Assembly: GCA_051000335.1 (NCBI GenBank)
Contig: JBPCOK010000107.1
Span: 1-49,223 of the forward strand
Length of the DNA stretch: 49,223 bases
Source: Candidatus Limnocylindria bacterium
Lineage (GTDB): Bacteria > Chloroflexota > Limnocylindria > QHBO01
Reading direction: 5' to 3'
A program made the translations under genes and the position numbers. Shown piece after piece: positions 3,833 through 19,737 of this stretch (position 1 is its first letter; every line of letters starts with the position of its first letter). The notes beneath the pieces were generated by a model, which was given only the letters and a program-made list of their open reading frames with translations, had not been told where the DNA came from and did not search any database.

Positions 3833-4064
3833 GATGAGTCCATTCCTTCCCTGGATGATCTCCAGCTTCCCCTGATGCAGAACGCCGGACAACGAAAAAT
3901 GAGTCCTTGAGCGTATCGCCGCCACAGCATAGGAAGGGGTCTGGGACTTTGGTACCCCGGCCCCCGTGCGGTGCTGAGGGGTCTGCGTCAGTCCGGTTCG
4001 GAACGGTAATCGCGAATCCGGTGCATCCGCGCACCGCGGGTCCTAGGACGAAGGGGGCAGGCCC

Positions 4065-4718
4065 TCAGGATCGGCGACGCCGGGTGCGTGCGTCGAGTGC
4101 TCCAAGCACGGCGAGCGACGCGGTGATCACTACCAGGAGCGCAGTCGGCACCGACGAAATCGGCGCCTCGTCTGTGGCCGTATCGGGCAGCAACAGCCCG
4201 GGCGTGGGAGTCGGGTTCCCGCCGAGCGTGTCATCCCGAGGGGGTGCCGGCGTCGCGACGGGCGCTTCCGGAGCCGCCGGGGTGGGCGTTGGCGTCGACT
4301 CCGATGCCTGGCTCCGGCCATTCACGAAGACGGCATCCGGACTGTTGCAATCGCCGTCGTCGTCAACCTCCACGGCCTGCGAGCTGGGCTGCGCGAGCTC
4401 GTAGCCGGCAGGGGCCTCGACCTGCGTGACGGTCCAGACCGAGTCAGCCGGCAGTCCGGTGATGCAGAAATGGCCGAATGACCCAGAGATGAACGTTCCA
4501 TCCATGCCGTCGACCGTATACGTCGCGCCGGGGAGCCGGGCTCCCTGGTCATCCAGGGTGCGGATGTTGAGCGCTGCCGGCCCGGTCTCCATGGCTGCCG
4601 TGCGGGAGGCCAGGACGGCGCTCATGCCCACGGCGAGCGCGAGGGACGTTCCTGCCACGATCAAGAGCCACGACCGCGCGGGATCGATTCGGCCGACGTA
4701 AGAATGATTCCGCGCCAT
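4065..4718 (-). CDS. Secreted cell-surface protein, shorter paralog of 2732..3832 (SpaA/Cna-B-like domain, LPDTA sorting signal)
   Basis: - The maximal ORF is 4065..4781. I place the start at ATG 4718 (MARNHSYVGRIDPARSWLLIVAGTSLALAVG..).
- LNIRTLDDQGARLPGATYTVDG..ITGLP..WTVTQVEAPAGYE and VEVDDDGDCNSPDAVFVN match the neighbouring gene almost exactly.
- The C-terminus is GGNPTPTPGLLLPDTA, a hydrophobic stretch, then RTRRRRS. Confidence 0.75.
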   Translation of the reverse strand: MARNHSYVGRIDPARSWLLIVAGTSLALAVGMSAVLASRTAAMETGPAALNIRTLDDQGARLPGATYTVDGMDGTFISGSFGHFCITGLPADSVWTVTQVEAPAGYELAQPSSQAVEVDDDGDCNSPDAVFVNGRSQASESTPTPTPAAPEAPVATPAPPRDDTLGGNPTPTPGLLLPDTATDEAPISSVPTALLVVITASLAVLGALDARTRRRRS

Positions 4719-4826
4719 GTCCTGCCCTCTTCTGCGTGCCGGGCGAATCAGCGCTTCGCGTACCTGTCCCACAGCGGTCACAGTATACGGCGCCGATGCC
4801 CCATCGGTACCATCGGTAGGGGGGAC

Positions 4827-5468
4827 TCAGCTCGTTCGGCCGCGAGCCTCGAGCACCACGACCTGGGTCTCGTCCGGCAGCGAGTTCGGGGTGAACTGTG
4901 CCTTCGGCTGCCGGATCGGCTCAGTAGCCATCTCATGGAGAAAGCGCTCGGGCCCGCCGAGATCCTTCGACGCCCCGTCGACGCCGAAATGCATGGGGAT
5001 CACGATCTTCGGGCCGATCTGGGACACCACCTCCGCGGCCTCGGATGGCGTCAGCGTCGTCTCGCCACCGACGGGCACCAGCAGGACGTCGACCGGGCCG
5101 AGCTCGCTGACCTGCTCATCGGTCAGGAGGTGGCCGAGGTCGCCCAGGTGGCAGACGTGAACGCCATCGATCTCGACGGCGAAGATCATGTTCTCGCCCC
5201 GTGCTGCACCGGCCTCGCCGTCGTGATAGGTCCGCACGCCGGTCACGAGGAGCTCGCTGAACTCGTACTCGCCGGGTCGGGTCAGGGTCAGGCCGGCCTT
5301 GATCGATCGGGTGTAGGTGTGGTCCGGGTGATCGTGGCTGATCGTCAGCAGCTCGACGTCGTGCTTGCCTGCCACGAAGCCGGTGGAGGGAGGGCAGGGG
5401 TCGGTGATGACGGTGGCGTCCTTCCCCTTAAGGCGGAAGCAGGCACGTCCGTACCAGGTGATTTCCAT
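4827..5468 (-). CDS. Metal-dependent hydrolase, MBL fold (UPF0173 family)
   Basis: MEITWYGRACFRLKGKDATVITDP.., TISHDHPDH and HLGDLGH motifs are present. The true start is ATG 5468; the 415-aa track ORF (to 6074) is an upstream extension that runs over the divergent neighbour. Confidence 0.85.
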   Translation of the reverse strand: MEITWYGRACFRLKGKDATVITDPCPPSTGFVAGKHDVELLTISHDHPDHTYTRSIKAGLTLTRPGEYEFSELLVTGVRTYHDGEAGAARGENMIFAVEIDGVHVCHLGDLGHLLTDEQVSELGPVDVLLVPVGGETTLTPSEAAEVVSQIGPKIVIPMHFGVDGASKDLGGPERFLHEMATEPIRQPKAQFTPNSLPDETQVVVLEARGRTS

Positions 5469-7000: not shown

Positions 7001-8653
7001 CTACATCGTCTCCGGGGCGGAGATGCCCAGGAGGTCCAGGCCGTTGGCCAGCACCGATCGCGTCGCGTCGACCAGCGCAAGCCGGGCCGATGACATAGCC
7101 GCATCCTCGGTGAGGACCTTGCAATCCCGGTAGAAGGCGGAGAACGCGCTGGCCAGCTCATAGCAATAGCGTGGCACCTCGTGCGTCTCGCGGCGCTCGG
7201 CCGCGGTTGCCAGCGCATCGGGGAAGTCGAGGAGGTGCCGGACGAGCTCCTGCTCGGCGGGGTGGAGGAGGAGGGTCCCCGCCTCGGCGGCATCGGGCCG
7301 AAGGCCGGTGTCCTGCCCGTGGCGCAGGATCGACGAGGCTCGGGCATGCGCGTACTGCACGTAGTACACCGGATTCTCGTTGCTCTGCTTCTTCGCGAGC
7401 TCGAGGTCGAAGTCGATGCCAGTCGTGTAGGCGCGCGAGCTGAAGAACCAGCGAGCCGCGTCCACACCGACCTCGTCCAGCACCTCGTCGAGGGTGATGA
7501 ACTCGCCGGAACGCTTGCTCATCGGGATCTCCACGCCGTCGCGGACGAAGCGCACCCACGCGATCAACAGCATCCGGACCGCCTCGCGATCGTGACCCAT
7601 GGCCTGGGCGGCGTTGCGGACTCGAGCCACCGTCCCGTGGTGATCGGCGCCCCAGACGTAGATGAGCTCGTCGAATCCCCTGCTCAGCTTCTCCGTCACG
7701 TAGCCGATGTCGGACGCGAAATACGTGGAGAGGCCGTTGGACCGGTAGATGACGCGGTCCTTGTCGTCGCCGAACTCGGTCGAGCGAAACCATGTCGCGC
7801 CGTCGGCGTCGTAGACGTGGCCGGCGTTCCTCAGCTCGTCGACGGCGCGCGCAACCCAGCCGCCGTCGTGCAGTGAGCTCTCCTCCTTCCACGCGTCGAA
7901 GCGAACGCCGAGCCGCGCCAGGCTGGCCTCGATCCCGGCGCGCACGCGCTCGGTGGCCCAGGCGCCGACGATGCGACCCGCGTCGTCCGGGTCGCCATCG
8001 GCCCGGGCCATGAGCTCGGACGGAATGGCCTCGGCCAGCTCCTGCACGTAGGCACCGTGGTACCCGTCGGGCGGCAGCTCGCTTCCGGTGCGGCGCGCCA
8101 GCACGGACAAGCCGAGATTCACGACCTGCGCGCCGAAGTCGTTGAAGTAGTACTCCCGCCCGACGTCATGGCCGACGGCGCCCAGCACGCGGCTCAGCAC
8201 GTCGCCGACGAAGGCACCGCGCGCGTTCCCGACATGGAGCGGGCCCGTAGGGTTGGCACTGACGAACTCGACGTTGATGCGCTGGGGCGTGGCCGCGGTC
8301 CCTAGACCGAAGTCGCGACCGGCGTCACGGATCGGGCCGACCTGTGCGGCGACCCATCCCGGGTCGAGGCGGATGTTCAGGAATCCTGGCGGTGCCACCG
8401 AGACGTCGGCGACCGCGGGCGGGGCACGGAACGAGTTGGCGATCGCCTCGGCAATCCGCATCGGCGCGGCGCGCGCGACGGGCGCGAGCTGCATGGCAAC
8501 GTTGCTCGCCCAGTCACCGTGCTCCGGCTTGGCGGGACGTTCGAGACCGATGTCTGGGAGTGGCGTGCCATCGGCAACGGTTAGGAGGCCGGCGCTCATG
8601 GCGCGGTCGCGCGCCTCGGCGATGGCGACGGCGAGATCGTTGCGGAGGCTCAT
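7001..8653 (-). CDS. argS: Arginine--tRNA ligase
   Basis: Full-length 550 aa. It has SANPTGPLHVGNARG (HIGH-type) and MSKRSG (KMSKS-type) motifs, and the typical C-terminal anticodon-binding domain ending in M. Confidence 0.95.
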   Translation of the reverse strand: MSLRNDLAVAIAEARDRAMSAGLLTVADGTPLPDIGLERPAKPEHGDWASNVAMQLAPVARAAPMRIAEAIANSFRAPPAVADVSVAPPGFLNIRLDPGWVAAQVGPIRDAGRDFGLGTAATPQRINVEFVSANPTGPLHVGNARGAFVGDVLSRVLGAVGHDVGREYYFNDFGAQVVNLGLSVLARRTGSELPPDGYHGAYVQELAEAIPSELMARADGDPDDAGRIVGAWATERVRAGIEASLARLGVRFDAWKEESSLHDGGWVARAVDELRNAGHVYDADGATWFRSTEFGDDKDRVIYRSNGLSTYFASDIGYVTEKLSRGFDELIYVWGADHHGTVARVRNAAQAMGHDREAVRMLLIAWVRFVRDGVEIPMSKRSGEFITLDEVLDEVGVDAARWFFSSRAYTTGIDFDLELAKKQSNENPVYYVQYAHARASSILRHGQDTGLRPDAAEAGTLLLHPAEQELVRHLLDFPDALATAAERRETHEVPRYCYELASAFSAFYRDCKVLTEDAAMSSARLALVDATRSVLANGLDLLGISAPETM

Positions 8654-8965: not shown

Positions 8966-9880
8966 CTAGCGATCCCGGGCCAGCCGCAGCTCCAGCGCCT
9001 GGCCCGCGCTGAAGTCCATGAGGCCGAGCGCATCGGCGGCAACATCGAGCAGGGCTCCCGCCGGCGCAAGTCCGATGAGCTCGCAATGATCGATCTGCGT
9101 GCCGGCGTCACCCGCCAGGCGGCGCACCTCCCGCACGACCGCGGCGATGCCGGTGCGCTGCCAGTCGACGAGGTTGGTGCTGACCTGGGCCATTCTCGGC
9201 TGGCCGGGGTTCTCGAGCAGGACTCCCATTGCCTGCACGGCCGGCATCCCGCCCGAGCTCTCGCGAATCGCGTTGGCGATCTTGATGGCGAGGCCCAGGT
9301 CGTCGGAGCGCAGGTTGATGTTGAAGGCGATGAGCGGCTTCCGCGCGCCGACGGCCACCGCCCCGCCCCGCGGGTGAACCCGGGATGGCCCGAAGTCGGG
9401 TGCCCGATTGGGCCGGTCTCCGATCTCGTCGCGGATCGCCTCGTACTGGCCGCGACGAACCTCCGCGAGACGCCGCCGTTCGGGACGCAGGGCCGCGTCA
9501 CCGTACAGGTAGACCGGCAGGTCGAATCGACCGGCAATTTGCTCGCCGAACCGTCGGGCGAGGTCGACACACTCCTCGATGCGGGTCGTGCCGAGCGGAA
9601 CGAACGGGATGACATCCACCGCCCCGATGCGCGGATGGGCGCCGGTGTGCTGCTCCATGTCGATGAGCTCCAGCGCGCGGCCCACGGCGGCCGTCGCGGC
9701 GCGCACGACCGGCTCGGCGCTCCCGGCGAACGTGACGACGCTCCGGTTGTGCGTCTCGTCGCGCGTGTGGTCGAGCACGGTCACGCCCTCGATCGACCCG
9801 ACGGCGCGGACGATCTCGTCGACGACCTCTGCCCGCCGGCCCTCGCTGAAGTTCGGTACACACTCGATCAATCCGCGCAC
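8966..9880 (-). CDS. Glutamate formimidoyltransferase (FtcD N-terminal-type)
   Basis: It has the hallmark N-terminus LIECVPNFSEGRR. I place the start at GTG 9880; the 372-aa track ORF extends over the divergent rsmI start, which is implausible. Confidence 0.85.
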   Translation of the reverse strand: MRGLIECVPNFSEGRRAEVVDEIVRAVGSIEGVTVLDHTRDETHNRSVVTFAGSAEPVVRAATAAVGRALELIDMEQHTGAHPRIGAVDVIPFVPLGTTRIEECVDLARRFGEQIAGRFDLPVYLYGDAALRPERRRLAEVRRGQYEAIRDEIGDRPNRAPDFGPSRVHPRGGAVAVGARKPLIAFNINLRSDDLGLAIKIANAIRESSGGMPAVQAMGVLLENPGQPRMAQVSTNLVDWQRTGIAAVVREVRRLAGDAGTQIDHCELIGLAPAGALLDVAADALGLMDFSAGQALELRLARDR

Positions 9881-9935
9881 GCCCCAGATCGTAGCGGGGC
9901 CGGTCCCGCGGTGACGGGCTGGTAGGCTCGGCCTG

Positions 9936-10790
9936 ATGACGGCATCGAGAGCCCAGGGCCCGACCGGACGCCTGTACCTGGTGGCCCTACCGATCGGCAA
10001 CCCGGACGACATGACGCCTCGCGCCGTGGCAATCCTCGGTGCGGTGGCACTCGTGGCGGCCGAGGACACCCGCCACTTCGCCACGCTCGCGCGGCGTCAC
10101 GGCATTCGAGCCCGAGCCGTGAGCTACCACGATCACAACGAAGACCGGAGGTCGCGGGAGCTGCTTGCGCGGCTCGAGGCCGGGGACGATGTCGCCTTGG
10201 TTTCCGATGCCGGCACGCCGCTCGTCAGCGATCCGGGATACCGGCTGGTGCAGGCCGCGATCCGTGCGGGGATCGATGTCACGAGCCTGCCCGGGGCGTC
10301 GGCGGTCACGACGGCGCTCGCGGCGTCGGGGCTGCCGCCTCACCCGTTCCGGTTCGTGGGATTCCTGCCTCGCAGCCGGGCGGCACGGCGCACGGCCCTT
10401 GCGGCGCTGGTGGCGGATGACGCCACGCTGGTCGCCTTCGAGGCGCCGCGCCGAATCGTGGCCACCCTGGTCGATGTCCGGGAGGTGCTCGGCGATCGGC
10501 TTGCCTGCGTGGCCCGTTCGCTCACCAAGGAAGGCGAGCGGTACCAGCGAGGGCCGGTGTCGCGGCTGATCGATGAGCTGCGTGCCGAGGACGAGGTGCG
10601 CGGCGAGTGCACCCTGCTGGTGGCCGGCGCCGACGCGACCACTGGATCGATGGCCGATGCCGAGGACGATGCCACGCTCTTGTTGGCCTGTGGCGCTCCC
10701 GCGCGAGCCGTGCAGGACCTGCTGGTGCAGCGCCACGGTCTGCCGCGGCGCGAAGCGTATGCCCTGGTGCTCAGGCTGCGGGACCGATGA
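9936..10790 (+). CDS. rsmI: 16S rRNA (cytidine1402-2'-O)-methyltransferase
   Basis: LYLVALPIGNPDDMTPRAVAILGAVALVAAEDTRHFATL.. is present, along with a tetrapyrrole-methylase-fold signature (SDAGTPLVSDPGYRLV). Confidence 0.9.
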   Translation: MTASRAQGPTGRLYLVALPIGNPDDMTPRAVAILGAVALVAAEDTRHFATLARRHGIRARAVSYHDHNEDRRSRELLARLEAGDDVALVSDAGTPLVSDPGYRLVQAAIRAGIDVTSLPGASAVTTALAASGLPPHPFRFVGFLPRSRAARRTALAALVADDATLVAFEAPRRIVATLVDVREVLGDRLACVARSLTKEGERYQRGPVSRLIDELRAEDEVRGECTLLVAGADATTGSMADAEDDATLLLACGAPARAVQDLLVQRHGLPRREAYALVLRLRDR

Positions 10791-11581
10791 CCTCGGAGAT
10801 CGTGGAGCGCGTGCTTCGCTCGTCCAGATACCGCGACGTCGATCCCGCCCTGCTGGGTCGGCTGGCCGAGGAGGAGCTGGCCCGAGCACGGAACGTCGAC
10901 GACGCGGTCAAGCGCGTGAAGCGCCGCCTGCACCAGGCGGTCGGCGCATTCCGCGGCTCGCGCCGAGCGAGCCGACTCGCCGACGCCTGGAACGGCGACC
11001 TGGAGGATCCGGTGTTCCGGGACGCCTGCATCGAAGCCATGCGCGGCCATGCGTCGACTCGCGAGCGGCTGAACGCGATCGACGCGCTCTACCCGGCGAT
11101 CTGGTCCGTCACCGGCACGCCGGGGTCCGTCCTGGATCTCGGGTGCGGGCTGAACCCGCTGACGCTCCCCTGGATGGGAATCTCGCCCGTTGCGCGGTAC
11201 ACCGCCTCGGACGTCGACCGCCGTCCGCTGAGCACGGTCACCGCATTCCTCGAGCTCGTCGGCCAGGCGCATCGCATCGAGGTGCGCGATCTCGTCAGCG
11301 ATCCACCCGAGGAGCGCGCCGACGTTGCCCTCCTCCTCAAGCTCGTCACGACCCTCGACCGCCAGGACCCCGGCGCCGCCGCCCGGCTCATCGACGCGCT
11401 CGACGTTCGGCATGTGGTCCTCTCCTTTCCGCTGCGGTCGCTCGGCGGCGGAAAGCGGGGCATGGGTCGAACCTACCGAGCGCGACTGGATCGCCTGCTG
11501 GAGGCATCGGTACGGGCTCGAACGCTGACCGAGGTCCCGGTCCCCGATGAGCTGGTCGCCGTGGTGGGGCTCGATGGCTGA
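10787..11581 (+). CDS. 16S rRNA methyltransferase of the FmrO/Kgm/Sgm/Rmt/ArmA family (m7G1405-type, aminoglycoside-resistance class)
   Basis: - The start ATG 10787 overlaps the rsmI stop (ATGA).
- The N-terminus (VERVLRSSRYRDVDPALLGRLAEEELARARNVDDAVKRVKRRLHQAVGAF) closely parallels the Sgm/KgmB N-terminus as I recall it.
- It has a SAM motif (VLDLGCGLNPL).
- It has SFPLRSLGGGKRGM, compared with the family motif SFPT.SLGGRSKGM. Confidence 0.8.
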   Translation: MTSEIVERVLRSSRYRDVDPALLGRLAEEELARARNVDDAVKRVKRRLHQAVGAFRGSRRASRLADAWNGDLEDPVFRDACIEAMRGHASTRERLNAIDALYPAIWSVTGTPGSVLDLGCGLNPLTLPWMGISPVARYTASDVDRRPLSTVTAFLELVGQAHRIEVRDLVSDPPEERADVALLLKLVTTLDRQDPGAAARLIDALDVRHVVLSFPLRSLGGGKRGMGRTYRARLDRLLEASVRARTLTEVPVPDELVAVVGLDG

Positions 11582-12659
11582 GCCGATCACCACCGGTCGC
11601 GGCAGCCTTGCCGTTCCGACCTTCCTCCCGGACGCGACCCGCGCCGGCGTGCGCGGCGTGAGCAGCGAGGATCTGCGCGCGGTCGGGATCGAAGGCGTGG
11701 TCGTGAACGCATTTCACCTCCTCCGGCGCCCAGGAGCGCGCGTGGTCCAGGCCGCCGGCGGCATCCATCGGTTCATGGATTGGTCGGGTCCGATCCTGTC
11801 CGACTCGGGCGGATTCCAGGTCTGGAGCCTCATCCGGCAGGATCCCAATCGCGGCGTCATCCGCGACAACGAGGTGATCTTTCGCGAGCCGTCCACCGGG
11901 GAGAAGTGGAATCTGACCCCCGAGCGCGTGATCGGGGTGCAGTTCCAGCTTGGCTCCGACATCGTGGTGTGCCTGGACGACTGCACCGATGCCGAAGGTC
12001 CGGAGGCCGAGCAGGAGCGATCGGTCGAGCGGACCCTCCGCTGGGCACGTCGCAGCCGCGAGGAGTTCGACCGGCGGGTTGCCGAACGCCGGGCCGACGT
12101 GCCACCGCGGATCTTCGCGGTCGTCCAGGGTGGAGGGTCGGAGCGGCTGCGTCGCCAGTGCGCGACCGAGCTGGCGTCCATCGGCTTCGACGGGTACGGA
12201 TTCGGGGGATGGCCGCTGGACGCCGAGAGCGCCCTCCTGGCCGATCCGCTGCGCTGGGTCGCCGAATCATTGCCGGCCGATGCTCCGAAGCACGCGTTGG
12301 GCATCGGCCGACCCGATCACGTGGTCAGCGCCGCAGCCCTCGGCTATTCGATCTTCGACTGCGCGCTCCCCACGCGCGATGCTCGACACGGCCGGCTCTA
12401 TGCCTTCCGATCAGGGTGGCAGGACCGCCGGCCGTCGCCGGGAGACCATTTCTACCGCGCGATTCGCATCCACGACGCCGAGCACCGGGTTGCCCATGGA
12501 CCGATCGAGGACGGCTGTGACTGTCCGCTGTGCGCGCGCCACTCCGCCGCGTACCTCCACCACCTCTTCAAGGTCGGCGACCTCTCGGCCGAGCGGCTGG
12601 CCACGCTCCACAACCTTCGGTTCTACGTCAGGCTGTTCGAGCTGCTGCGAGCCGGCTAG
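11574..12659 (+). CDS. tRNA-guanine transglycosylase (TGT) family base-exchange enzyme, divergent
   Basis: - It aligns along its whole length to bacterial TGT: GPILSDSGGFQVWSL, LGSDIVVCLDDC, LRWARRSREEFD, IFDCALPTRDARHG.
- The zinc site CDCPLC..HHL..LHNL is present.
- The start is ATG 11574, an 8-nt overlap with the upstream gene; an alternative is 11547.
- The GGLAVGE pocket motif is replaced by GGWPLDA. Confidence 0.85.
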   Translation: MAEPITTGRGSLAVPTFLPDATRAGVRGVSSEDLRAVGIEGVVVNAFHLLRRPGARVVQAAGGIHRFMDWSGPILSDSGGFQVWSLIRQDPNRGVIRDNEVIFREPSTGEKWNLTPERVIGVQFQLGSDIVVCLDDCTDAEGPEAEQERSVERTLRWARRSREEFDRRVAERRADVPPRIFAVVQGGGSERLRRQCATELASIGFDGYGFGGWPLDAESALLADPLRWVAESLPADAPKHALGIGRPDHVVSAAALGYSIFDCALPTRDARHGRLYAFRSGWQDRRPSPGDHFYRAIRIHDAEHRVAHGPIEDGCDCPLCARHSAAYLHHLFKVGDLSAERLATLHNLRFYVRLFELLRAG

Positions 12660-13756
12660 GCATGCGCGGCAGCCTGCGCCGGATCCTCGCGCCCGAGGGT
12701 ATCGGGATTGACATTGCGGGCGCGTGCCATGCGCTCGGTGAGCAGCTGGAGCGAGATCGCGGCGCCGAGCAGCGCCGGGGCGGGGCCCGGGATGCGTCCG
12801 GCGCGGGGCGGGACCACGCGGCCGGCCGGCGTGAGGTCATCGTCGAGGCTTCGCGAGACCTCGGCCGAAAGGATGGCCGCCGCCGGAACCGAGAGCGACG
12901 CCGCCGCGGCCAGCAGGCGTTCGGCGCGCTGACGGACCTCGGGTATCGGCGCGGCGTCGGCGACGATGAGGATGAGCCCGGTCCAGCGGGTGGCTGCGGC
13001 GAGGTGGCCGTGGTGCAGGGTCTCGAGCTGGTAGGCGGAGGCCGGCAGATGGGCGCCCTCCGCGATCTTGAGTGCGAGCTCGCGCGCCGAGACATGGTCC
13101 GGCCCGGCGCCGGCGACCATGATTCGGTCGCATCCGGCGAGCGCCGAGGCAACCGTGGCGGCCGTATGGGGATCGATCGCGCCATCGAGCAGGGATCGGA
13201 TCCCGATGACGTCGGGCTTGCGGTCGGCCAGCCGCGCGCCTGCCGCGATGCCGACGAGGATGGGTGACAGGTAGCCGACGGTATGGCACCAGCTCTGGTC
13301 CTGCTCGTCGGTCGTGATGACGATGCGGGCCGTCTCCGCCCCCGGTGACCCGGCTCCGACGGTGATGAGGGCGGTCGCCACCCCGGCCCTCGAGGCCGCG
13401 TGCAGTGCCGCATTCGTCATCGCCGTCCCGCCCTCGTGAGAGACGCCGATGAGCAGGCCGCTGTCGGGCGGGCGGGGTAACAGCTCCAGCGCCTGGACGG
13501 CCCGTACCTCGCGACCCGAAGGCAATCCGAGGCCCTCGGTCAGCAGCTCCGCGACGGCCATCGCCGCGTGCTCCGACGTGCCGCAGCCCGTCACCATGAT
13601 CGGCTGGTGGGCGGCCACGGCTGTGCGGATGGCGTCGACGAGATCGGCGAGCGCGGGATCGGATGCGAGGCGGTGAAGCAGGCGTTCGGCGAGCGCGGGC
13701 TCGGCCGCGATCATCTCGCTCATCACGTACGGCGCGCGTCCACGGAACGCCGGCAT
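12656..13756 (-). CDS. Tandem SIS-domain sugar-phosphate isomerase/aminotransferase-like protein (GlmS C-terminal-like, no glutaminase domain)
   Basis: GCGTSEHAAMAVAELL and SHEGGTAMT motifs are present, plus a second SIS repeat (VAGAGPDHVSARELALKI). I place the start at ATG 13756, because the track start at 13900 would overlap the end of hutU by 77 nt. The N-terminus YVMSEMIAAEP resembles the M..EI.EQP start of GlmS isomerase domains. Confidence 0.7.
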   Translation of the reverse strand: MPAFRGRAPYVMSEMIAAEPALAERLLHRLASDPALADLVDAIRTAVAAHQPIMVTGCGTSEHAAMAVAELLTEGLGLPSGREVRAVQALELLPRPPDSGLLIGVSHEGGTAMTNAALHAASRAGVATALITVGAGSPGAETARIVITTDEQDQSWCHTVGYLSPILVGIAAGARLADRKPDVIGIRSLLDGAIDPHTAATVASALAGCDRIMVAGAGPDHVSARELALKIAEGAHLPASAYQLETLHHGHLAAATRWTGLILIVADAAPIPEVRQRAERLLAAAASLSVPAAAILSAEVSRSLDDDLTPAGRVVPPRAGRIPGPAPALLGAAISLQLLTERMARARNVNPDTLGREDPAQAAAHA

Positions 13757-13823
13757 CTCGGACGGGGCCCACGGATCGGGAGGTCCGGGCAGCGGCTCGT
13801 TCGCCGCACGTTGTGCCAACGCG

Positions 13824-15506
13824 TCAGCGATCGTCGGATCGCATGGGGATCCGGACCCCGCGCTCGTCAGCGACCTCGAGCGCCCGCTCGTAGCCGGCAT
13901 CGGCGTGGCGGATGACGCCCATGCCGGGATCGCTGGTCAGGACCCGCTCGAGCCGAGCCGCCGCCTCGGGGGTGCCATCGGCGACGACGACCATGCCGGC
14001 ATGGAGCGAGTAGCCGATGCCGACGCCACCGCCGTGATGGAAGCTGACCCAGGTGGCCCCGGCGGCCGTGTTCACCAGTGCGTTGAGGATCGGCCAGTCG
14101 GCGATGGCGTCGGACCCGTCGCGCATGGCCTCGGTCTCACGGTGCGGTGACGCTACCGAGCCGGCGTCGAGGTGGTCACGGCCGATGACGATCGGGGCAC
14201 TCACCTCGCCCGACGCCACGAGGTCGTTGATGGCGGCGCCGGCGCGTGCGCGTTCGCCGTAGCCAAGCCAGCAGATACGCGCCGGAAGGCCCTGGATCGG
14301 GACCTTCTCGGCGGCCAGCCGCAGCCAGCGCTGGAGCCCCTCGTCGTCGGGGAAGAGGCCGGCGAGCGCCTGGTCGATGCGCGCGATGTCCTCGGCGTCG
14401 CCGGAGAGCGCCGCGACCCGGAACGGGCCGCGGCCCTCGCAGAAGAGCGGACGGATGAAGGCGGGGACGAACCCGGGGAAGTCGAACGCATTCTCGACGC
14501 CGCCCTCACGAGCGACCTGGCGGATGTTGTTGCCGTAGTCGAAGGTGACGGCGCCTGCGGCCTGGAATGCCAGCATGGCCCGCACGTGCTCCGCCATCGA
14601 TGCGGTGCTACGTCGGATGTACTCGTCAGGATTGGCTTCCCGAATGGCGGGCGCATCGGCCGGTGAGATGCCGATCGGGACGTAGCCGCCGAGCGGGTCG
14701 TGGGCGCTCGTCTGGTCCGTGACGAGATCCGGGCGCCAGTCTCGACGCACCAGCTCCGGCAGAACCTCGGCGGCATTCCCGACAAGCGCCACGGATCGGC
14801 TCCGGCGATCGGAGCGCCAGGATTCGACCATGGCGAGGGCTGCGTCCAGGTAATAGACCACGTCGTCCACGTACCCCGCGGCGAGCCGTCGGCGGGCCCG
14901 GGATTCATCGACTTCGACGACGAGGGCCACCCCTTCGTTCATGGTCACGGCCAGCGGCTGCGCGCCACCCATGCCGCCGAGCCCGGCCGTCAGCGTCACC
15001 GTTCCCGCGAGGCTACCGCCGAAGTGCTGGCGCGCCGCCTCGGCGAAGGTCTCGTAGGTTCCCTGAATGATTCCCTGGGTTGCGATGTAGATCCACGACC
15101 CTGCCGTCATCTGGCCGTACATCGTCAGTCCGGCGCGCTCCAGCTCCCGGAACTTCTCCCAGGTTGCCCAATGCGGCACCAGGTTCGCGTTTGCGATGAG
15201 AACCCGCGGCGAGTCAGGCGTGGTGCGGAAGACGCCTACCGGCTTGCCGGACGCCACCAGGAGCGTCTCGTCGTTCTCCAGGCGTCGAAGCTCGGCGACG
15301 ATGGCATCGAACGCGTCCCAGCTGCGCGCGGCGCGGCCCGTGCCGCCGTAGACGATGAGGTGGTCCGGATCCTCGGCCACATCGGGGTCGAGATTATTCA
15401 TCAGCATCCGCAGCGCGGCTTCCTGCTGCCACCCCTTGCAGGTCAGTTCCCTGCCGCGAGGGGCGCGAACGGTGCGGGGACCGCTTCGCGGTCCGACGGC
15501 TGTCAT
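13824..15506 (-). CDS. hutU: Urocanate hydratase
   Basis: [38 protein letters not shown] and [12 protein letters not shown] are present. The start is ATG 15506, giving 560 aa; the 642-aa track ORF is an N-terminal extension. Confidence 0.95.
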
Positions 15507-15655
15507 GCGCCGATGATACGGCTCGCCGCGAGGCACCAGCGCGGTGGCGTCATGCGCGAGAGAGGAGGAACGCCGTCGCGGGCTGCGGCGCCAAGTACGA
15601 GCGTGGACCCGGCGAGCATCCCCCACAGGCCCGCCACGATCGGCTCGGGCATGCC

Positions 15656-16400
15656 TCAGTCGTCCCCGAATGGATTCGGTCGCTTGGGACCGTCGGGAGG
15701 CAGGCGGAACAGGTCGTCCGGATCGCGCTGCCGGGGGAGTGGCAGGGGCCATTCGTCGCCCTCATCGGGTTCGGCGGCGCGCAGTAGTCCGGACCATGCG
15801 TCGGCATCGGTCTCGCCGGTCAGCTCGCGCCGGTAGACCGGGTAGCGATCGTCGCCGGCCGCCCGCTCGAAGCCGGCCCCCTCGTAGGCGGACGCCGGAC
15901 CCGGTGACGGCAGCCATGGATCGGCGGACGCTTCAGGATAGGCCTCGACCGCGGTGATTCCGCGCCCGTCGAGCTCGGCGCACACTGCGTTGAGCAGCGC
16001 AACGGCGGAAGTGTGCCGGTCGGACTCGGCAGGAACGATCTGCAGGCAGGTGATCACCCAGGGAGCCGGCGAGTCCGGGAGCTGCGGATATCGCTCGCGG
16101 ATCGATTGAGCGCGGGGGTAGGCGCTCAGCGGACCGAACTGCGCGTAGCCCATCGCCTCGCCCGGATTCGACCCGGTCGCGTAGGCGAGCATGGCGTACG
16201 AGCCGGAGATCCCCTGGCCGGCGAGGAGACGCCGTCGCTTCAATGCCGCGCGGGAATCGACATCGGTGGCGTCGTCGGGCGGAGTCGCGCGGGTGCCATC
16301 GATGCGCTCCCAGTAATCACAGGTCTGGCATCGGGCTCCTGGGAGGCCCGGAGCCGGGATGTCGCCGACGTTCGATTCGTCGACGAGCTCGAACCGCAGG

Positions 16401-16408
<8 letters not shown>
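15656..16408 (-). CDS. Hypothetical protein, GNAT-acetyltransferase-like, with an acidic/Pro-rich tail
   Basis: The start ATG 16408 overlaps the hutH stop by 8 nt. It has an N-terminal CQTCDYWE motif. The segment [24 protein letters not shown] resembles the GNAT core. The family call is tentative. Confidence 0.4.
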
Positions 16409-17930
<1,522 letters not shown>

Positions 17931-19484: not shown

Positions 19485-19504
19485 CGGCGTTCGAACGAAT
19501 CCAT

Positions 19505-19661
19505 CGTCTTCGGGGCGGGGTGAAACTCCCCACCGGCGGTCGGCTCATGATCTGGGCCAGCCCGCGAACCGCATCGGCAACGCGCCGACGCGGCTGACCT
19601 GACCCCCGGCACCCGCCGGGGCAGACAGGGCCGACGGTCATAGTCCGGATGGGAGAAGACG
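19505..19661 (+). promoter_or_regulatory. FMN riboswitch (RFN element) aptamer
   Basis: - P1 is formed by CGTCTTC..GAAGACG.
- Conserved cores are present: GGGGCGGGGTGAAACTCCCCACCGGCGGT, AGCCCGCGAACC and GCCGACGGTCATAGTCCGGATGGGAGAAGACG.
- These match the RFN consensus as known from the Bacillus ribD leader. Confidence 0.9.
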
Positions 19662-19737
19662 ACCGCGCGACTCGCCGTGTCCCGGCGAGGAGCGATGGCG
19701 TGGTCCCGTGCGCGATGGCGAACCGCACGGGAGCGCC

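Follow-up and report, generated by a model that had tools for sequence, protein, structure and literature searches.

Enzymes of the tRNA-guanine transglycosylase (TGT) family are known for base exchange in tRNA and DNA and for conjugation of a base to protein; to our knowledge, none has been described for rRNA. The decoding centre of the 30S subunit has its own endogenous set of modification enzymes, RsmH and RsmI acting at C1402, RsmF at C1407 and RsmE at U1498, and as far as we know no described set of this kind includes a base-exchange enzyme. Here, we analyzed a stretch of 49,223 nucleotides (the window; contig JBPCOK010000107.1 of a Candidatus Limnocylindria bacterium) with a GC content of ~70%, whose proteins match metagenome-assembled genomes (MAGs) labelled Candidatus Limnocylindria, phylum Chloroflexota. 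It carries an overlapping block of three genes: rsmI, a homologue of the FmrO/Rmt family of methyltransferases and a variant TGT-family gene, which we call TGTv. We find a specific coupling, in both directions, between TGTv and two 30S-specific methyltransferases of helix 44, with fusion proteins in some cases, and no coupling of TGTv to queA. The pairing of FmrO and RsmI with TGTv suggests that bases of rRNA may be exchanged in a way not described so far.

The three genes follow one another on the plus strand. The first, rsmI (9936..10790), encodes a predicted 16S rRNA (cytidine1402-2'-O)-methyltransferase of 284 amino acids; the second (10787..11581) encodes a 264-residue homologue of the FmrO/Rmt-family 16S rRNA (guanine1405-N7)-methyltransferases; the third, TGTv (11574..12659), encodes a variant TGT-family enzyme of 361 residues. 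The rsmI stop and the fmrO-like start share the 4 nt ATGA (10787..10790, plus strand), while the TGTv start and the fmrO-like stop share 8 nt, ATGGCTGA (11574..11581, plus strand). Both junctions are conserved: the first was kept as ATGA or GTGA in 58/61 related loci, and the second, as ATGGCTGA or GTGGCTGA, in 60/71. The TGTv open reading frame (ORF) is also open from an upstream ATG at 11547. We placed the start at 11574 because homologues are 359–363 residues long and because the ATGGCTGA/GTGGCTGA junction is recurrent.

The window RsmI scored 218 bits on TIGR00096 (cutoff 167.9) and 110 bits on PF00590 and is, on these profiles, a bona fide member of the RsmI family. The middle protein matched the FmrO profile PF07091 with 192 bits over its full length (profile positions 1–253 of 255), the N-terminal 30S-docking subdomains included. 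The closest solved structure was Sgm (E 3e-42), to residues 19–278 of which it aligns, with 38% identity over the A3 alignment. On the generic Rmt model NF000466, which is tuned to acquired resistance enzymes, it scored 216.6, under the cutoff of 250. When the protein was aligned to RmtC (8GHU), Y21, H54, S107, D160, K204, T207, R211 and M245 were kept, and Y60F and K236R were conservative replacements. Work on RmtC has shown that this enzyme uses them for docking on the 30S subunit, for distorting helix 44 and for holding G1405 in place once it is flipped (PMC10054953). Because these docking and flipping residues are kept, the middle protein is very probably a 30S-directed G1405 N7-methyltransferase.

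The third protein matched PF01702 (TGT) with 321 bits. An earlier note, which reads the genes from the DNA letters, had claimed an overlapping trio of rsmI, an m7G1405-type methyltransferase and a TGT-like gene. The 4-nt and 8-nt overlaps were confirmed from the sequence, the three family assignments were borne out by profile searches, and for the middle gene, with FmrO as its best profile and the functional residues of RmtC in place, an unrelated methyltransferase class was not supported.

Sequence features place the third protein in a separate TGT subfamily, distinct from the ordinary queuosine-pathway tgt. TGTv shares ~36–40% identity with the Tgt enzymes of E. coli and Z. mobilis. On TIGR00430 (cutoff 306.75) it scored 313.4, and its relatives, at 303–322, straddle the cutoff; the Bacillus Tgt control scored 638. 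Its AlphaFold2 model (predicted local distance difference test score 95.6) matches Z. mobilis TGT with template modelling (TM) scores of 0.87–0.88 (0.88 for the tRNA-bound structure 1Q2R). The catalytic residues Asp102 and Asp280 and the base contacts Asp156, Gln203 and Gly230 are aligned and invariant across the subfamily. R286, R289 and the CxCxxC..H zinc site are kept as well, and the dimer-interface aromatics of tRNA-binding Tgt are present in the alignment.

Differences are concentrated in the pockets. The base pocket of TGTv reads GGWPLD (GGWPLDA) where canonical enzymes have GGLAVGE, so that Ala232 is replaced by Pro and position 235 is not Glu. In canonical Tgt, the Leu231/Ala232 peptide can flip, with support from Glu235, so that guanine meets its NH and preQ1 its C=O (PMC3660597). 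Since Pro232 has no amide NH and Glu235 is missing, this guanine/preQ1 switch cannot work in TGTv. Queuine-salvaging bacterial TGTs carry GG[LS][AS]G at this place (PMC11570991), unlike the GGWP of TGTv. In the ribose-34 pocket, as defined in PMC5395182, TGTv has FLPDAT versus the canonical FMPVGT: Val45 has become an invariant Asp, Gly46 is replaced by Ala, and so is Val282. Two insertions, of 4 and ~15 residues, are present, and TGTv is without the extensions that canonical enzymes have at the N and C termini.

In a two-model test, all 52 of the 52 FmrO-linked TGTs favoured the variant model, by +150 to +297 bits, and all 80 of the 80 canonical controls scored −183 to −297 bits. Intermediates between TGTv and canonical enzymes occur among cluster representatives at 50% identity, including a branch of candidate phyla radiation (CPR) type without zinc ligands. 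Two CPR-type TGTs (L095, 9953–11062; L097, 8456–9715) were considered as members of the subfamily and rejected: they have GARP rather than GGWP, lack the zinc Cys/His residues and have no FmrO nearby. They do have the PDAT motif and the 4-residue insertion in common with TGTv, and each follows a DUF11 protein. As a separate observation, canonical TGTs fused to a C-terminal Methyltransf_30 domain (PF05430) were found among P0324, P0361, P0382 and P0383, and one TGT was split by a DUF559 endonuclease-like domain.

We then turn to the distribution of the linkage. Nearly all of this survey evidence comes from MAGs and from our own ORF and hidden Markov model calls; genome-scan results are those among the matches listed, and the taxon range is a lower bound. 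In the survey seeded with TGTv, FmrO was next door in 72/76 Limnocylindria-type loci and RsmI in 63; where flank was available on both sides, FmrO was present in 60/61. The trio was found in ~60 Limnocylindria species. Because the whole Limnocylindria neighbourhood is syntenic, distant relatives weigh more than these loci. Among TGTv homologues of 41–64% identity, FmrO was next door in 19/21 loci and RsmI in 15. Their hosts are Anaerolineae, Ktedonobacterales, Oscillospiraceae and other Bacillota, Coatesbacteria and Latescibacterota, and further cases of linkage were seen in Armatimonadota, Zipacnadales, Aminicenantes and Actinomycetota MAGs. The linkage thus spans at least eight bacterial phyla, in unrelated neighbourhoods, and the gene order varies by lineage (RsmI-FmrO-TGTv, RsmI-TGTv-FmrO or TGTv-FmrO-RsmI). 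An Armatimonadota chromosome (CP070816.1) has RsmI-TGTv-FmrO, and the same trio occurs in Zipacnadales. The cultured Ktedonosporobacter rubrisoli SCAWS-G2 (L328) carries a TGTv-FmrO pair in its complete genome; complete genomes with the pair include NZ_CP035758.1 (K. rubrisoli), CP070816.1 and OY970296.1 (both Armatimonadota), OZ252228.1 (Latescibacterota) and NZ_OZ244997.1 (Ca. Leptofilum).

A Pfam census of three genes on each side of TGTv in 25 diverse loci returned only FmrO (22), RsmI-type (8) and RsmB/F (7) proteins as recurrent neighbours; no que genes or tRNA-modification families recurred in these 25 loci. The block is extended in some lineages. It is preceded by RsmH in Oscillospiraceae. 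The Anaerolineae cluster consists of an RsmI-like gene, TGTv, two FmrO genes, RsmF, RsmE, a queuosine-precursor transporter (TIGR00697, YhhQ-type) and a second RsmI (L085, 4692–12544; also L089, L093, L094, L096, L098, L301 and L322); the second FmrO paralogue of these clusters is without the GM(245) motif. No preQ1 riboswitches were found in the window or in seven Anaerolineae clusters, where only a flavin mononucleotide (FMN) riboswitch and a tRNA were detected. Two side observations concern individual loci. In a Ktedonobacterales MAG (L082), a DDE transposase gene (3954–4832) lies directly upstream of the RsmI-TGTv-FmrO block. Four loci (L012, L017, L031 and L055) are assigned to MAGs of Binatia, Steroidobacteraceae, Angelobacter and Zixiibacteriota; their TGTv proteins are 78–87% identical to that of the window, and they are probably mis-binned Limnocylindria contigs.

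Canonical tgt loci behaved differently. With flanks of 6–10 kb, FmrO was found in 0/147 of them, RsmI in 0/147 and queA in 99/147, versus no queA at all in 153 TGTv loci with the same flanks. The reverse survey was seeded with FmrO, Sgm being the first sequence. In 47/71 non-actinomycete loci a TGT was present, in every case of the variant type, and 38 of these were directly adjacent on the same strand; when only FmrO loci flanked by 2.5 kb or more on each side are counted, 34/47 had a TGT. No TGT was found in this survey near the FmrO homologues of Micromonospora, Saccharomonospora and Actinokineospora. In two Actinomycetota MAGs (L256, 166–5792; L257), a divergent RsmI-TGTv-FmrO trio stands next to an Sgm-like FmrO (61–64% identity to Sgm) in back-to-back orientation; this arrangement may connect the module with the resistance methyltransferases of producer type.

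At a level coarser than the genome, canonical tgt and TGTv both occur within Coatesbacteria, Latescibacterota and Oscillospiraceae. A canonical Tgt was found in Coatesbacteria; a genome scan with it was filled by Gammaproteobacteria, and the TGTv-bearing MAG L074 was not among the matches listed. The part of the supplementary tables of PMC11570991 that we consulted contained no Chloroflexota names for taxa classed as 'tgt-only'.

Coupling is also supported by fusion proteins. P0249 (628 amino acids) joins TGTv to FmrO, with RsmI immediately upstream in its locus, and P0260 (710 amino acids) joins RsmI to TGTv, with FmrO immediately downstream. The TGTv-FmrO architecture was present in at least eight clusters at 90% identity; one of these, only 37% identical to the rest, also follows an RsmI gene. 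In each of the three fusion loci examined (L166, L167 and L249), the third gene stands alongside. The fusions are evolved architectures and not artefacts of single contigs. The earlier note had argued for coupling of the three genes over chance adjacency and had its author aware of no described module of this kind. The conserved overlaps, the TGT-FmrO and RsmI-TGT fusions and the cross-phylum survey uphold the coupling; conservation reaches beyond this genome, to ~60 Limnocylindria species and, in different gene order, to other phyla; and our literature search for a TGT with FmrO, with m7G1405 or in an rRNA module found nothing relevant and no paper on the module, within an incomplete coverage of journals.

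What might the three proteins do together? We put at about even the chance that TGTv acts with these methyltransferases on helix 44 of 16S rRNA, likeliest by guanine exchange. The three genes would then form one co-translated operon for modification of helix 44 in the decoding centre. RsmI would 2'-O-methylate C1402, the FmrO-type enzyme would dock on the 30S subunit, flip out G1405 and methylate its N7, and TGTv would use its Asp nucleophile to put another base in place of a guanine within or beside helix 44, G1405 or m7G1405 being the prime candidate. The incoming base would probably be a salvaged 7-deazaguanine, at which the YhhQ-type transporter in the clusters of one lineage hints. From the partners and pockets just described we infer that TGTv acts on the 30S subunit (16S rRNA), as well as which nucleotide it would target and which base it would bring in.

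A more specific version of this scheme, in which m7G1405 is first made by FmrO and then replaced by TGTv with a 7-substituted 7-deazaguanine (such as salvaged preQ0 or preQ1), is speculative, and we hold it to be unlikely as a whole. Methylation at N7 of the flipped G1405 would create a cationic, activated leaving group, and the pocket of TGTv, which offers no NH donor to N7 and has acquired a Trp, would suit m7G as the leaving base.

Several points weigh against an exchange on helix 44. G1405 is base-paired inside the helix and, in contrast to the guanine of Tgt substrates, does not stand in a UGU context, and we know of no report of a 7-deazapurine or of base exchange in rRNA. The partnership is also not complete in either direction: a few TGTv genes have no neighbouring FmrO (L069, L087 and L092), and FmrO genes without TGTv are found in Promineifilaceae/Ardenticatenaceae, CPR bacteria and Micromonospora. 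In Promineifilum/Ardenticatenaceae genomes (L270, L279, L287, L313 and L323) the arrangement is FmrO-FmrO-RsmE with no TGT within 5 kb, hence FmrO paralogue pairs exist without an adjacent TGTv. Finally, the dimer aromatics, R286/R289 and the Z. mobilis Tgt fold that TGTv retains are compatible with a tRNA substrate, and the transporter of the Anaerolineae clusters fits ordinary tRNA salvage equally well.

The most probable alternative is that TGTv is a transglycosylase of tRNA G34 with a changed base preference (e.g., for a salvaged queuosine precursor, without QueA), co-selected and co-expressed with the helix-44 methyltransferases because decoding and the tolerance of aminoglycosides are adjusted by each of these enzymes. 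Such a role would account for TGTv scores at or near the TIGR00430 cutoff, for the retained tRNA-side residues and for a modelled fold that matches a tRNA-bound TGT. Salvage-type TGTs with altered pockets are indeed known, but those that salvage queuine have a motif other than GGWP (PMC11570991). Vibrio cholerae needs its canonical tgt for aminoglycoside tolerance (PMC11703503), which would agree with co-selection; covalent fusion to two different 30S-specific methyltransferases is, however, hard to explain for a tRNA enzyme. Likewise, a queuosine-precursor transporter is found within the Anaerolineae clusters, yet neither que nor other tRNA-modification genes recur near TGTv. Overall, we regard a tRNA substrate as rather unlikely, though well within the range of serious explanations.

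TGTv could also work on the 30S subunit without installing a new base, either by removing m7G1405 or returning it to guanine, as an eraser or repair enzyme for a labile cationic base, or mainly by flipping the base for FmrO or serving it as a scaffold. Linkage and fusions speak for this as they do for exchange on helix 44. A pocket that has lost the NH donor toward guanine N7 and gained a Trp would suit N7-methylated guanine, and no deazaguanine transporter or synthesis gene lies near most loci, the window included. An eraser co-translated with or fused to its writer would, however, amount to a futile cycle, and the invariant full catalytic set and zinc site argue for real transglycosylation chemistry over a scaffold; we consider either role improbable. 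Plain clustering of housekeeping genes, kept by synteny without a functional link, is effectively excluded by the surveys: although the Limnocylindria neighbourhood (argS, hut genes) is syntenic and conservation in that class alone proves little, the pair or trio survives shuffling of gene order in at least eight phyla and unrelated neighbourhoods, is absent from 147 canonical tgt loci and occurs as gene fusions.

If TGTv is a transglycosylase of the decoding centre, it would represent a new chemical class of ribosome modification at the exact aminoglycoside-binding site. The product of methylation and replacement at G1405, if these take place, would have no known precedent in rRNA, either as a 7-deazapurine or as a base-exchange modification. 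It would block the 4,6-aminoglycoside site in a chemically stable way, and the clinical Rmt/ArmA resistance enzymes would then be candidates for an evolutionary origin in the module. Outside antibiotic producers, the sampled FmrO/Rmt enzymes are mostly partners of TGTv, which bears on the origin of the clinical 16S methyltransferases. There is also a consequence for annotation: TGTv proteins are labelled Tgt or queuine tRNA-ribosyltransferase, so that the queuosine pathway may have been predicted wrongly in lineages such as Chloroflexota and Armatimonadota.

The surroundings of the trio in the window set it off as a discrete three-gene block, since histidine-utilisation genes on the opposite strand lie on both flanks. 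Upstream, argS (7001–8653) is followed by a formimidoyltransferase gene (8966–9883, minus strand), which is separated from rsmI by a divergent intergenic region of 52 bp (9884..9935), the presumed promoter region of the operon. Downstream, the TGTv stop and the stop of a minus-strand gene for an SIS-domain protein (12656–13900) overlap convergently by 4 nt (12656..12659), which marks the operon end; urocanase (13824–15752) and histidine ammonia-lyase (16401–17930) genes follow, both on the minus strand. These assignments come from Pfam matches and the ORF map, and the argS/hut synteny is shared with other Limnocylindria. A scan of 9500–13000 found neither a sigma-70 promoter consensus nor an intrinsic terminator pattern, as expected for a non-model genome of 70% GC. 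In some Limnocylindria (L003–L005, 4728–5177), the rsmI start lies in a 4-nt overlap with the gene of a NUDIX hydrolase, giving a four-gene unit; unlike these, the window has no NUDIX hydrolase gene at the rsmI start. The sole Rfam match in the window was an FMN riboswitch (RF00050) at 19502–19664 on the plus strand (82 bits; gathering score 66.2).

Comparison with known systems brings out what is particular to the module. Bacterial Tgt, usually encoded as queA-tgt, and TGTv are alike in fold, in the Asp nucleophile and general base, in the Asp156/Gln203/Gly230 contacts, in the zinc site and in the dimer aromatics. They differ in the GGWPLD pocket, in Val45 changed to Asp, in the two insertions and missing termini, and in TGTv reaching about half the bits (313 versus 638); by context, TGTv has FmrO as a neighbour almost always and queA in no case. 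The FmrO of the window resembles the m7G1405 enzymes Rmt, Arm, Kgm, Sgm and FmrO in its full-length PF07091 match and in its 30S-docking, helix 44-distorting and S-adenosylmethionine-binding residues. Unlike these enzymes, it is chromosomal and housekeeping-like, with no aminoglycoside gene cluster around it and no mobile element, and FmrO of the module is translationally coupled or fused to a TGT-family enzyme, in contrast to its homologues in Micromonospora, Saccharomonospora and Actinokineospora. Of the endogenous decoding-centre set, RsmH, RsmF and RsmE accompany the module in Oscillospiraceae and Anaerolineae clusters.

Precedents for TGT-family enzymes that have been redirected to a different nucleic acid or position and work with partner enzymes are DpdA-DpdB-DpdC, which place 7-deazaguanine in DNA, and the archaeal ArcTGT-ArcS pair. 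TGTv itself was rejected as a member of either group. It scored 28 bits on the DpdA model NF041059 (cutoff 200), with no dpdB or dpdC in the neighbour census, and 91 bits on TIGR00432 for ArcTGT (cutoff 350), with no ArcS and no PUA domain, the protein ending right after the zinc subdomain. Unlike those of DpdA and ArcTGT, the partners of TGTv are rRNA methyltransferases.

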